This document shows positions 3,161 through 52,493 of a stretch of DNA of 64,000 nucleotides, piece after piece; position 1 is the first letter of the stretch; each line of letters begins with the position of its first letter. The notes beneath the pieces are model-generated. The model did not search any database, was not told the DNA's origin, and saw only the letters and a program-made list of their open reading frames with translations. The position numbers and the translations under genes were made by a program. Origin of the DNA: an uncultured Bacillales bacterium (lineage in GTDB: Bacteria; Bacillota_I; Bacilli_A; RF39; UBA660); NCBI GenBank assembly GCA_946624985.1, contig CAMOSQ010000004.1, positions 7,034-71,033 of the forward strand, written 5' to 3'.

Positions 3161-3994
3161 CTACTTATCATTAACATTTTCTGAAATATTATTCATATAA
3201 TTACTATAATTTTGAACATTAATAGCAATACCAATAACAAGAGAATATGACAAAATATATATCCACATCATCATAATTATTATATTAGATAAACTACCAT
3301 AAAAAATATCATAATGAGAAAAATTTTGAACATAAAAAGAATAAATAAAAGTTGAAATCATCCAAGCAATAGTTGTAAAAAAAGCACCCTTATTTGTATA
3401 CTTACTCTTAATTATTGAATCTGGAGCTAAAGTAAAAATCAACTTAATCATTATAAATATAACTACAATTGCTGTCGGCCACTTAAATAACAAATATAAA
3501 TAATAAATTTTATTACCAATATTACTATAAGACAAAATATATTTTAAAATATTATTACCAAAAGCTAACACAATCAAAGAAAAAATAACCAAAATCATCA
3601 ATAAAATAGTAATAAATAAAGATTTAATTCTTCTCCTCAAATAATTATGATGCTCTAATCCATATAAAGTATTACAACTAACAATTATAGAATGCGCACC
3701 ATTAGATGCAACAACATAACCTAAAAGGACAGAAAAACCAATATGAATATCTAAACCATTCAAAGTAATATAATTAATAAGTATACTATTAACTTCATTA
3801 GGTAAAATATCACCCATTAAATTAATAACACTATCAACAGATACATTAAAAAAAGAAGCAAAAAATCCAAACAAAGTTATAATAGGAAAAATAGAAAGAA
3901 CAAGAAAAAAAGCAATATTTCCTGGTAAAATCTTCATTTCAGGTCGTCTAATAATTTTAATTAATTTTTTTAAATACTTCTTAGTTAAATTCAT
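3161..3994 (-). CDS. YihY/BrkB (ribonuclease BN-like) family membrane protein
   Basis: Polytopic membrane protein with the N-terminal motif LPGNIAFFLVLSIFP typical of the family. Start moved to the ATG at 3994 after AAAGGA. Confidence 0.7.
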   Translation of the reverse strand: MNLTKKYLKKLIKIIRRPEMKILPGNIAFFLVLSIFPIITLFGFFASFFNVSVDSVINLMGDILPNEVNSILINYITLNGLDIHIGFSVLLGYVVASNGAHSIIVSCNTLYGLEHHNYLRRRIKSLFITILLMILVIFSLIVLAFGNNILKYILSYSNIGNKIYYLYLLFKWPTAIVVIFIMIKLIFTLAPDSIIKSKYTNKGAFFTTIAWMISTFIYSFYVQNFSHYDIFYGSLSNIIIMMMWIYILSYSLVIGIAINVQNYSNYMNNISENVNDK

Positions 3995-4027
3995 AAATAT
4001 CCTTTCAAAAAGGTAAAGCAAAATGCT

Positions 4028-20250: not shown

Positions 20251-20796
20251 TTAGTCATTATAATTATAAATACCTAATATCTTATCTTCTATAGTATCAT
20301 TAATAGAATCCAACTTCCACTTATTATTATCCTTATGAACAGTAAAATCAATAGTATAAGTAACCTTATCTTTAGCTTCTTTCAATCTATCCAATAAATA
20401 CTTTTTATACAAATTATCATTATAAATCTCTTCATTATAAAACTCTTCTATATGACCTCTTTTATAAACCTCAGCTTCATTTATAATTTTAGTAAAATCA
20501 GTAACAATAACTTCCGCACTTACTACTGCCTCATCACCATCAATACGTTCTTCCTTAATACTATACTGTAAATCTTTATACTGCTTTTTAATTAACTCTC
20601 TATACTCTTTCTTATTTTCATCATTTAACTTAGTCTTCTTGTCAATTACACTATCCAACTGATCTAATACCTCTTTATCCAATATTTGATACTTATTAAG
20701 ATATTCCTCTACTTTCTTAGTAGGAGTATTACTAATATCTAACATACTACACCCTGTAAAAAATAAAACCGATAAAATAACAAATAATCTTTTCAT
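20251..20796 (-). CDS. lipoprotein, function unknown
   Basis: Signal peptide with lipobox LFFTGC. Confidence 0.7.
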   Translation of the reverse strand: MKRLFVILSVLFFTGCSMLDISNTPTKKVEEYLNKYQILDKEVLDQLDSVIDKKTKLNDENKKEYRELIKKQYKDLQYSIKEERIDGDEAVVSAEVIVTDFTKIINEAEVYKRGHIEEFYNEEIYNDNLYKKYLLDRLKEAKDKVTYTIDFTVHKDNNKWKLDSINDTIEDKILGIYNYND

Positions 20797-20895
20797 ACTT
20801 GCCTCCTATTTATATAATTAACAAAAACAAAATATATATACATTAATTTGATGTAAATTGTTGATTTTTAAAAATATATATGTTAAAATGTATTT

Positions 20896-21017
20896 AGGAA
20901 GCATTGCTTCATAAAATAAAAAAGGGAATACTTAACTTTGCTGTGTTGAGTACTCACCTAGAAAAAGATTTTTTAAGGCAAAGTACTAATCTTACAAAGA
21001 TTGAGTACTTTTATTTT
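20896..21017 (+). ncRNA. candidate antitoxin sRNA of TA-like module 1
   Basis: Promoter TTGATT (20861-66), 17-nt spacer, TAAAAT (20884-89). 5' hairpin gaagc-att-gcttc. Terminator gtact-aatctt-aca-aagatt-g-agtac followed by TTTTATTTT (20983-21017). Convergent with the peptide gene and antisense to its 3' UTR. Confidence 0.45.
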
Positions 21018-21039
21018 GCCTTAAAACCAATAAAAACAA

Positions 21040-21108
21040 CTACCGATATATTATAAGCAAAACAATGATAACTAATAAAGATAAAATTAATAAATCTTTC
21101 TTATACAT
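21040..21108 (-). CDS. 22-aa hydrophobic peptide, candidate type I toxin: MYKKDLLILSLLVIIVLLIIYR
   Basis: Promoter TTGATT-17-TATAAT (21190..21162). SD GGAGGG lies 7 nt before the ATG and is paired in the hairpin CCUCC-GUAA-GGAGG (21130..21117). Below the ORF-track cut-off. Confidence 0.55.
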   Translation of the reverse strand: MYKKDLLILSLLVIIVLLIIYR

Positions 21109-21211
21109 ATTATCGCCCTCCTTACGGAGGTAAGTACCCAACAATTAAGTATTCCTATAATATTATAACTTGTAATTAACTTTAAATCAACATAAAATTA
21201 ACAAAATAATT

Positions 21212-21237
21212 AAAAAAAAAGAGACTTACTTAGCCTC
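21212..21237 (-). terminator. rny terminator
   Basis: Minus-strand hairpin GAGGC-uaaguaa-GUCUC followed by U9. Confidence 0.55.
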
Positions 21238-22779
21238 TTCTACAACTCTAGTCTCTCTAATTACAGTAACCTTTATAGTACCAGGATATTGTAACTTTTC
21301 CTCAATCTGATTCTTAATATCACGAGCAACTTTATAAGTTTTTAAATCATCAATTTCCTCAGACTTAACTAAAACTCTAAGCTCACGACCAGCTTGTACA
21401 GCATATGACTTATCAACACCATCAATACCATCAGCAATCTCTTCAAGATCCTTAAGTCTTTGAACATAATTCTCTAAAGAATCATTTCTAGCTCCAGGAC
21501 GTGAAGCAGAAAGTGCATCAGCAATCGCTACTATAGAAGAAATTATACTAGTAGCTTCCTTATCACCATGATGTGACTCAATAGCATTAATAACAACATC
21601 ATTTTCTTTATACTTCTTAGCAAGCTCAGCCCCTAGAGTAACATGACTACCTTCAACCTCATGATCAATAGACTTACCAATATCATGTAAAAGTCCAGCA
21701 CGTCTAGCAAGCGCTACATTTTCACCCAACTCAGCAGCAAGTAATCCAGATAAATAAGCAACTTCAATAGAATGAGTTAAAGCATTTTGACCAAAGCTTG
21801 TCCTAAAATGTAACTTACCTAAAATCTCAACTAATTCAGGATCCATCTTAGTAATACCTAACTCAAATAAAGCAGAATTACCATACTCTAAAACCTTAGC
21901 CTTCATATCATTAACAGTTTTATCATATAACTCTTCAATACGAGTTGGATGAATTCTTCCATCCTTAATCAAAGTCTCTAAAGTAACACGAGCGATCTCC
22001 CTACGATATGGATCAAAACTTGATATTACTATAGCCTCAGGTGTATCATCAATAATTAAATCAACACCAGTAACAGCCTCTATAGTTCTAATATTACGAC
22101 CCTCACGGCCTATAATTCTACCCTTCATCTCATCATTAGGTAAACTTACAACAGTAACAGTTTGTTCACTAGCAACCTCACCTGAATACTTTTGCATACT
22201 AGAAACAAGCATAGACTTAGCCTTCTTATCAACTAGAAGCTTAGCCTCAGCCTCTCTATCCTTAATCATTGCAGCAATCTCTAAGCTCATCATTTCTTCA
22301 ACCTTTTTAAGAACTAAATCACGAGCTTGATTCTTAGAATAACCTGCAATTTTCTCTAATAATTCAACCTGTTCTTTTTTAATATTTTCCACTTCTACTT
22401 GTTCTTTTTGGATATCTTTTTGTTTATTTATTAGATTATTTTCCTTTTCCTCTAACATTTGTTCACGATTTTGAAGAGTTTGATCTCTTCTATCAATGCT
22501 AGCCTCACGATTTAAAAGACGCTCTTCAGACTCCTTAATTTCAACCTTTTTCTCTTTAATCTCTTTATCAGTTTCAATCTTTAACTTATGAGCCTCTTCC
22601 TTAGCCTCTAATAAATAATCTCTCTTAATCTTATCTGCATCTTTCTTAGCCTTTTCAAGCATGTTATCTATTTTTTTAGAAGAACTAATTCCTCTAAGAT
22701 AATTAATAATCAAAATAAAAATTACACCAACAAAAATCCCAATAAGGACTAGTAAAATGGAGAAAGCTATATTATTCAT
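21226..22779 (-). CDS. rny: ribonuclease Y
   Basis: N-terminal TM segment, coiled-coil region, KH domain ([12 protein letters not shown]) and HD domain (LLHDIGK). ATG at 22779 follows GGAGG. Confidence 0.95.
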
Positions 22780-22865
22780 AAATACCTCCATTTAACATTT
22801 TATTCTAATACAAGTATAATATAGATTAAAAAATTAATCAAGGCTTTTACACATAATTTAAAAAC

Positions 22866-51919: not shown

Positions 51920-52124
51920 AATACCAACCGCCTTTCTTAACTCAAAATACCTGGACATATTATAACAAATTAATAAACATTAATCAAATAGTTTTTTTAC
52001 CTAAAAAGCACTTTTGTAACAAATGAAAAAGTAGATTTCTCTACTTCAAAGAAATTTATAGTCAAATTCCATTTTTTGATAATTAACATATTGATTATTT
52101 ATATAAAATATGTTATTATGTATG

Positions 52125-52243
52125 TAGTGAAGCAATACTTCATATAATAAAAAAGAGATATGCTTGATACTGGAATGTTAAGTGCTTATCTCCAAATGGT
52201 TATTTGTTGAAAAACACCAAACTCATCTGAGTCAGGTGTTTTT
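52125..52243 (+). ncRNA. candidate antitoxin sRNA of TA-like module 2
   Basis: Promoter TTGATT (52090-95), 17-nt spacer, TATTAT (52113-18). 5' hairpin ugaag-caaua-cuuca. Bidirectional terminator acacc...actca-tc-tgagt...ggtgt plus T6 (52213-52244). Confidence 0.45.
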
Positions 52244-52321
52244 TCTATCTTCTCTTGCGTCTTTTTGGAATTCCACGCACTACTAAAAGAATAAGTAGTA
52301 CTAGGACTAAATTGTAATCCA
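52244..52321 (-). CDS. 25-aa hydrophobic/polybasic peptide, candidate type I toxin: MDYNLVLVLLILLVVRGIPKRRKRR
   Basis: Promoter TTGACT-17-TATAAT, sharing ttaattacaagttataat with module 1. Upstream hairpin CCUCC-N10-GGAGG. SD GAAAGGA lies 7 nt before the ATG at 52321. An alternative overlapping 54-aa frame starts at 52349. Confidence 0.45.
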
Positions 52322-52463
52322 TAATAGATCCTTTCCAGTAATTTTTCCATATAGACCACCTCCTTACAATAACGGAGGTAAACACCTAACTATCTTGCAT
52401 ATCTCAACTACAATTATAACTTGTAATTAACCATTAAGTCAATATAAAAATAAATTTTTTGTA

Positions 52464-52493
52464 AACAAAAAGTAGAGTTTAAAAACTCTACTT
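52464..52493 (-). terminator. clpB terminator
   Basis: Hairpin gtagagt-ttaaaa-actctac plus a U-run on the minus strand. Confidence 0.6.

Follow-up and report, generated by a model that had tools for sequence, protein, structure and literature searches.

The known toxin-antitoxin (TA) families of type I are few, lineage-restricted and hard to find (PMC5367252, PMC12390103, PMC8594479), because both partners are short and evolve fast. In bsrG/SR4 of Bacillus subtilis nucleotides (nt) 1-35 of the bsrG mRNA pair with nt 232-262 in helix P1, and the Shine-Dalgarno sequence (SD) lies in a 4-bp stem right after P1; once the antisense RNA SR4 has bound, nt 1-33 are single-stranded, the SD helix has grown to 8 bp, and decay by RNase III is triggered (PMC3834814). 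Here we analyse a 64,000-nt stretch of DNA (the window) from an uncultured Bacillales bacterium (contig CAMOSQ010000004.1, positions 7,034 to 71,033), in which the gap between a lipoprotein-like open reading frame (ORF) and the RNase Y gene rny appears to hold a chromosomal gene for a putative small membrane peptide and a convergent predicted antisense RNA, one copy of a multi-copy family. We consider it probable, at roughly 0.7, that this module is a type I TA-like system of a previously unnamed family with the RNA architecture of bsrG/SR4. It would thus be a new sequence family of a known kind, with putative toxicity and predicted transcription.

In the txpA family the antisense RNA RatA overlaps the coding region (T1TAdb), and duplex-dependent decay is expected to be the mode of repression in txpA/RatA (PMC3531473, PMC3834814). 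In hok/Sok and aapA1/IsoA1 the full-length toxin mRNA is locked by pairing between its extreme 5' end and its 3' end (T1TAdb; PMC6733600, PMC9841398). In Fst/RNAII (par of pAD1) the element 5'-SL lies over the SD and 5'-UH hides the 5' end (PMC7472228). A literature search returned no description of the family reported here, or of type I systems in these uncultured Bacilli.

An earlier note on this DNA had read the gap as a type I TA-like module built like txpA/RatA and bsrG/SR4. Each element listed in it (promoters, SD hairpin, ORF, hairpins, terminators) lies where it had been placed, and the predictions that this architecture makes at the sequence level are conserved across a large family. 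The likeness to bsrG/SR4 is closer than the note realised, because the mRNA also has a P1-like helix, which the note had missed, and the 3' half of this helix falls within the target of the antisense RNA. The first ~28 nt of the peptide mRNA, whose predicted length at this locus (locus 1) is ~240 nt, pair with the last ~35 nt before the U-run. The minimum free energy (MFE) of the full-length mRNA was -75.9 kcal/mol (z -6.7) for locus 1 and -80.7 kcal/mol (z -6.2) for locus 2, the second copy in the window; both structures contain the 5'-3' helix, which was predicted in 58 of 60 full-length MFE folds. In 78 modules of the family, the 45 nt that precede the U-run were paired computationally with the upstream region to find their best duplex. 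This duplex started at most 14 nt past a -10 box, i.e. at the predicted +1, in 65 modules, and its mean energy was -32.2 kcal/mol for cognate partners, compared with -17.4 for non-cognate and -10.4 kcal/mol for shuffled ones.

Covariation was assessed with 56 modules in an alignment that is a construct, spliced from the 5' 32 nt, AAAA, the 3' 45 nt and TTTT, and that shows some register slippage at the 5' end. RNAalifold returned 18 pairs, 16 of them with compensatory double changes. The proportion of paired cells was 90.5%, as against 26-42% when the partners were slid by 1-3 columns, and there were 244 double-change cells, as against 20-52 in the slid controls. None of 500 shuffles reached the observed covariation score; kinship among the sequences inflates the shuffle statistics, therefore the slid-partner control is the fairer one. 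Pairs of the types G-U and U-G greatly outnumber A-C and C-A in the helix alignment, which argues for selection on the mRNA-sense RNA and not on an inverted repeat in the DNA. The long duplex was more stable than the local alternatives in all 61 modules compared, the median energies being -4.0 kcal/mol for the leader hairpin, -6.7 for the 3' hairpin and -31.1 for the long duplex. At locus 1 the CCU of the anti-SD is taken up by the final three pairs of the long helix, therefore opening of the helix should let the full CCUCC/GGAGG hairpin form.

The second main element is the antisense RNA, which at locus 1 folds with -37.3 kcal/mol (z -5.0). It has ~100 nt of perfect complementarity to the 3' untranslated region (UTR) of the mRNA, including the 3' half of the long helix, and ends ~25 nt short of the ORF, with which it does not overlap; the DNA of its terminator, read on the mRNA strand, is the post-ORF stem-loop. 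The antisense promoter, TTGAyw-17-(TG)nTAnnAT in the family, is outside the pattern used to collect the modules and stands at a fixed distance from the 5' hairpin in 64 of the 64 modules with enough flank. A hairpin followed by a U-run is present on the antisense strand in 60 of 64 modules, giving RNAs of ~100-118 nt which end a median of 6 nt from the toxin stop codon. In 54 of 57 modules (p 1e-10) the middle hairpin (38 nt) is more stable in the sense of the small RNA (sRNA) than in that of the mRNA, with -12.1 vs. -6.7 kcal/mol, therefore the antisense RNA itself is under structural selection, and in the mRNA the same segment is tuned for pairing with the leader. We also observed that the block from the antisense -10 through the 5' hairpin into an A-rich run (ATGTATnTAG(T)GAAGnnnnnCTTCATAWAATAAAAA; 20890-20923, plus strand, and its equivalents) is conserved far above the rest of both RNAs, its primary sequence being kept beyond what structure alone would explain.

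The window has a GC content of 27%, and promoter-like hexamers are common in it (22 observed vs. 12.6 expected from shuffles). On their own such hexamers are weak evidence in DNA of this composition, therefore the case rests on conservation across copies. The -35 and -10 boxes of the peptide promoter and its spacer GTTAATTACAAGTTATAAT recur in locus 2 and in many family members, and for CCTCC-GTAA-GGAGG the number of exact or near matches expected by chance in the window is 0.05. As an observation apart, GTTAATTACAAGTTATAAT (spacer and -10 of the toxin promoter; 21162-21180 and 52413-52431) is near-identical across subfamilies that have differing leaders and ORFs. This sameness could reflect the operator of an unknown regulator, or gene conversion among the copies.

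The family was assembled in several ways. Homologues of the lipoprotein are many in metagenome-assembled genomes (MAGs) named uncultured 'Bacilli bacterium', and a scan of the genome collection with the lipoprotein alignment gave 25 loci labelled as MAGs of uncultured Bacilli, Tenericutes or Bacillota. The rny gene adjoins the lipoprotein gene in three of these (L002, L003 and L004; L numbers denote collected loci), and L003 and L004 carry a homologous module with its ORF in the syntenic gap; L019 has a module at a different place. The most conserved block among five copies, TATTWTATGAAGnnnnnCTTC(n)CTAnATAC in mRNA sense, which on the other strand is the start of the antisense RNA, served as the collection pattern, and a scan of metagenome contigs with it gave 88 stretches from rumen and gut samples, among them two contigs of ~0.5 Mb with at least 4 module copies each. 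A profile hidden Markov model (HMM) made from the modules had 106 matches, 86 of them full length, in 116 loci from uncultured Bacilli MAGs and from rumen and gut metagenomes. An SD followed by a hydrophobic ORF of 20-39 amino acids (aa) was found in 60 of 65 analysed modules, most of which also have a promoter of the sigma-70 type. The peptides follow the consensus M-x-K-[KR]-[DE], then 17-22 hydrophobic residues, often with K or R as the last residue; among 22 aligned peptides neither P nor G is conserved at any position, and the tails consist of 0-2 basic residues. The locus 1 product, MYKKDLLILSLLVIIVLLIIYR, is predicted to be a single-helix membrane peptide of 22 aa. Substitutions between related copies are distributed over codon positions 1:2:3 as 385:274:605, a pattern of the coding type, in which the kept second positions would preserve hydrophobicity. 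The earlier note had suggested looking in relatives for the ORF and the anti-SD hairpin. Besides the ORF, L004 keeps the CCUCC...GGAGG pairing and L003 a weaker one; the GNRA-capped form of the SD hairpin that the note had described is present at locus 1, but the GNRA loop is not conserved, as in relatives the loop is AUAA or far larger.

Neither the peptide nor the RNAs had been recognised by the earlier note as members of a named family, and the searches agree with this. Rfam in gathering mode had 0 matches over the whole window, and Rfam in E-value mode, run on both loci and 16 other loci, gave sub-threshold chance matches only. A sub-threshold match to SSRC34_2 (Streptococcus sRNA 34) at 52133-52246 on the plus strand coincides exactly with the predicted sRNA of locus 2 (25.2 bits vs. 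a gathering threshold of 48, E 0.068); we regard it as probably due to chance, as it did not recur in the 16 other loci. Unrelated to the module is a match to the ribosomal protein L21 leader just under the Rfam threshold (33.1 vs. 36 bits) in L107, at 937-1009 of the minus strand. An exact look-up in the protein collection found the 54-aa upstream ORF of locus 2 and the lipoprotein on record, and did not find the 22-aa and 25-aa peptides.

The modules come and go. In L002, where RNase Y is 86% identical, the site is empty, with ~57 nt between the rny stop and the lipoprotein start (3944-4000). At the rny-downstream site there is a locus-1-type module in the window, a locus-2-type one (MDYNLV) in L038, two modules in L051 and none in L002, so this site, as judged from these genomes, is a hot spot with replacement. 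Tandem arrays of 2-3 modules occur in L095 (3639-4331 and 5456-5720), L051 (887-1597), L060 (842-1605) and L105 (1342-1886), and some of them mix subfamilies. Two copies, L106 665-917 and L109 3349-3601, have lost the segment with SD and ORF (HMM positions ~78-182) and kept the promoter and leader along with the 3' UTR/antisense half, which gives them the look of derivatives with a deleted toxin. Orphan 3' halves consisting of the antisense gene and the 3' UTR only lie ~600 bp from a full module in L061 (947-1117) and L070 (708-878). The 155 neighbouring ORFs fall into 81 clusters. Such a pattern of presence and absence, tandem copies and apparent ORF loss is typical of chromosomal type I loci, and speaks against a housekeeping small protein.

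It is interesting to compare this module with the known systems. It shares with bsrG/SR4 the convergent genes and an antisense RNA that overlaps the 3' region of the toxin mRNA (PMC3834814). Further likenesses are the closing of the mRNA by a 5'-3' helix with an SD stem-loop directly after its 5' half, an antisense target that takes in both the post-ORF stem-loop and the long helix's 3' half, and, by analogy, an expected effect of binding, which would free the 5' end and tighten the SD helix. There are also differences. No sequence relation of the peptide to BsrG, BsrE or BsrH, or of the RNA to SR4 or SR5, was detectable, a comparison of low power for short peptides; the peptide has 22 aa, and BsrG 38. 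A terminator stem-loop separate from the long helix is absent from the module: the U-run abuts the helix itself, and a conserved hairpin that lies further downstream has no U-run behind it. The antisense RNA has ~120 nt and leaves the ORF free, compared with 183 nt in SR4, and the loci lie, in many copies and many subfamilies, between core genes of uncultured Bacilli, with no match in the phage collection. Taken together, the predicted architecture is that of bsrG/SR4 in all structural respects tested except the separate terminator. With txpA/RatA the module has in common a hydrophobic (putative) toxin and a convergent antisense RNA that pairs at the 3' ends; it differs from it in having no sequence similarity, in an antisense RNA that stays off the ORF, and in a peptide much shorter than the 59-aa TxpA. 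The 5'-3' lock recalls hok/Sok and aapA1/IsoA1, and the upstream overlapping ORF of the locus-2 subfamily recalls mok/hok. In those systems, however, to which there is no homology, the antisense RNA pairs with the 5' region or the initiation region of an mRNA that has been processed, and 3' trimming is required for activation, whereas here it targets the 3' half of the locking helix and has no specific complementarity to the 5' region.

How such a module may work can be sketched from the folding and by analogy with bsrG/SR4. Pairing of the 5' and 3' ends closes the mRNA and buries its 5' end. The free full-length mRNA would be stable yet poorly translated. The antisense RNA would contact the post-ORF stem-loop first and zip toward the 3' end, displacing the leader from the long helix; the 5' end would become single-stranded and open to 5'-dependent RNases, the ~100-bp duplex would be a substrate of RNase III, and the freed anti-SD would complete the SD hairpin. 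By decay and SD occlusion toxin synthesis would therefore be doubly blocked. Should the level of the antisense RNA drop, the peptide would be made and presumably damage the membrane. To imitate the bound antisense RNA, we masked the 3' UTR of 59 modules in partition-function folds. The first 6 nt went in their pairing from 0.90 in the free mRNA to 0.29 with the mask, and pairing of the SD went from 0.72 to 0.77 (up in 28 modules, down in 10, p 0.006); at locus 1 the latter changed from 0.94 to 1.00.

The type I reading draws strength from the generic features of such systems, which are present at the level of sequence: a small (<60 aa) hydrophobic protein, and an antisense RNA with its own promoter and terminator. 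It must be noted that several points weigh on the other side. The predicted rise in SD pairing upon antisense binding is small. Sequestration of the SD is not universal: no more than 40-43 of 60 modules have it paired to at least 80%, and in the L003 subfamily the pairing is weak. Access of the antisense RNA to a 3' target that is locked in a ~28-bp helix is an assumption taken from bsrG/SR4. As the family was gathered by a pattern from the antisense 5' region, there is some circularity in finding that block conserved, and close relatives are over-represented in the sample. Searches of Pfam and NCBIfam with 10 representative peptides (E<=10) returned no toxin family, although their power is low at 20-39 aa. 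Expression of both RNAs and toxicity of the peptide are predictions, and the hosts are uncultured.

Some of these points would also suit a gene pair other than a TA system, in which a small membrane protein is under a cis-antisense regulator. The protein would then have a benign role, e.g. regulating a membrane complex or serving in it as an accessory subunit, with its level tuned by the antisense RNA. Many bacterial small membrane proteins are harmless, the toxicity of the peptide is a prediction from its sequence, no toxin family was matched, and the modules lie between housekeeping genes and not on obvious mobile elements. Housekeeping small proteins are, however, normally single-copy and at a fixed site, whereas this module is multi-copy within genomes, arranged in tandem, present or absent at one site, and exchanged there between subfamilies; moreover, some copies without the ORF keep the antisense half. 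The layered repression predicted here, with a buried 5' end, an occluded SD and a strong extended -10 antisense promoter, is a pattern of toxic products (PMC3834814). We thus regard a benign protein as unlikely.

Membership in the Fst/RNAII (par) family, already disfavoured, seems very improbable to us. In that design direct repeats allow the antisense RNA to pair with the region of translation initiation, and a bidirectional terminator is common to the two RNAs. With its N-terminus MxKKDL the peptide is weakly reminiscent of Fst. Further parallels are the convergent promoters, the 5' stem-loop that sequesters the SD and the intramolecular helix that buries the 5' end (PMC7472228), although the partner of the 5' end is here the 3' UTR. 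Against this stand two separate terminators (20913..20959 minus, 20975..21017 plus), ~100 nt apart, instead of a bidirectional one, and an overlap of ~100 nt that comprises the whole 3' UTR. DRa/DRb complementarity is absent, and the energy of the duplex between sRNA and leader was not above background (-29.3 for cognate, -25.3 for non-cognate and -24.8 for shuffled partners). On this ground we also rejected an Fst- or SprA1-like pairing in trans between the sRNA and the leader or the region of initiation. The peptides have neither a PXXXG(C) motif nor a long charged tail, and no Fst family of Pfam or NCBIfam was matched. Hardly credible, and likewise already disfavoured, is a non-coding repeat, like a miniature inverted-repeat transposable element with inverted repeats at its ends, or else a group of clustered terminators, with the ORF and promoters as chance products of AT-rich DNA: the helix halves do form an inverted repeat around a ~200-bp core in the DNA, the element is multi-copy with presence and absence, and promoter-like hexamers abound, but the arms vary between copies and yet stay complementary, and they contain G-U pairs that work only in mRNA-sense RNA, the ORF has codon-position bias and keeps its frame, start and SD, both promoters stand at exact spacing to structured elements, no transposase association or target-site duplication was seen, blastn of the locus found no match in the plasmid and phage collections, and the two matches from a scan of viral contigs with the 3' signature were both due to chance inside coding sequence.

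The type I TA-like module that we prefer is set out with its coordinates in Table 1, together with its neighbours and its second copy.

Table 1. Predicted features of the two modules and their surroundings (positions in the window)
Feature	Position	Strand	Remarks
Locus 1			
Long helix, 5' half, AGGAAUACUUAAUUGUUGGGUACUUACCU	21128..21156	minus	begins at predicted +1; partner 20925..20959
Long helix, 3' half	20925..20959	minus	alone can form weaker local hairpin
Peptide mRNA promoter, TTGATT-17-TATAAT	21190..21162	minus	predicted start near 21156
SD-sequestering hairpin, CCUCC-GUAA-GGAGG	21130..21117	minus	first 3 nt common to 5'-3' helix
22-codon ORF, MYKKDLLILSLLVIIVLLIIYR, putative toxin	ATG 21108, stop at 21040	minus	GGAGG 8 nt upstream of ATG
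3' hairpin of peptide mRNA	20959..20925	minus	local fold -12.1 kcal/mol, z -3.5
U-run ending peptide mRNA, UUUUUUAUUUU	20923..20913	minus	directly abuts 5'-3' helix
Antisense RNA promoter, TTGATT-17-TAAAAT	20861..20889	plus	extended -10 TG
Predicted antisense sRNA, ~120 nt	20896..21017	plus	5' hairpin, middle hairpin, terminator
5' hairpin of antisense RNA, GAAGCAUUGCUUC	20898..20910	plus	
Middle hairpin of antisense RNA	20923..20959	plus	
Antisense terminator	hairpin 20975..21009, U-run 21010..21017	plus	UUUAUUUU
Gap holding the module	20797..21225		between lipoprotein-like ORF and RNase Y gene (rny)
Lipoprotein-like ORF	20251..20796	minus	without Pfam match
RNase Y gene, rny	21226..22791	minus	RNase_Y_N, KH and HD domains
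Locus 2			
Second module	52080..52447	minus	between clpB-like gene and der
Promoter	52442..52413	minus	
SD hairpin	52378..52359	minus	
Upstream ORF, 54 aa, non-hydrophobic	52350..52186	minus	opened by ATG after sequestered SD
Hydrophobic ORF, MDYNLVLVLLILLVVRGIPKRRKRR	52322..52245	minus	internal ATG, different frame, overlaps upstream ORF
Antisense sRNA	~52126..52244	plus	promoter 52091..52119

Locus 2 was found by a relaxed blastn of the gap against the window, which gave one paralogue at ~52035..52479 with 62% identity; the profile HMM, run over the window, found no copies besides these two. Both promoters, the ORF, both terminators and their spacing recur in it, and likewise in the gaps of L003 and L004 and in ~60 more modules. 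Its two-ORF layout is shared by L038, L041, L079 and L096, which form one subfamily with it, and is found in a second subfamily consisting of L047, L058 and L102. The upstream ORFs have ~37-55 aa and are conserved only in their N-terminal part, and an internal ATG, preceded by a GAAAGGA motif, opens the hydrophobic peptide in a different frame (MDYNLVLVLLI..RGIPKRRKRR or MELVIVFTLILFCIILEIKD). This arrangement could be a coupling device of the mok/hok kind or a stabilised frameshift.

The role of the 5'-3' helix may go beyond clamping the mRNA for stability. In most members the 3' segment folds poorly on its own in mRNA sense, and the U-run abuts the long helix, therefore the leader could supply the upstream arm of the terminator. 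That the leader is indeed the upstream arm of the mRNA's own terminator and that, jointly with this, a mok-like upstream ORF (uORF) couples translation in the two subfamilies is a tentative idea, to which we give a rather low probability.

The family offers ~100 natural variants of one predicted architecture from uncultured gut and rumen Bacilli, in effect a natural mutagenesis series. Their covariation supports a design of 5'-3' helix, SD stem-loop and 3' antisense RNA for which the biochemistry has been worked out at one locus only, that of bsrG/SR4. Its members further yield a signature, and an alignment from which a covariance model can be made to annotate these loci in MAGs. The practical gain is modest and consists in better annotation of 'empty' intergenic regions and in candidate membrane-active peptides, and the conceptual gain is incremental unless the ideas about the terminator or the uORF hold. 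If they do, the whole transcript would act as a terminator 'hairpin', with leader and antisense RNA in competition for one segment, and the antisense RNA would control termination, 5'-end protection and SD occlusion together. The mok-like uORF, beginning at the sequestered SD and overlapping the toxin ORF, would then represent translational coupling in a Gram-positive type I system.

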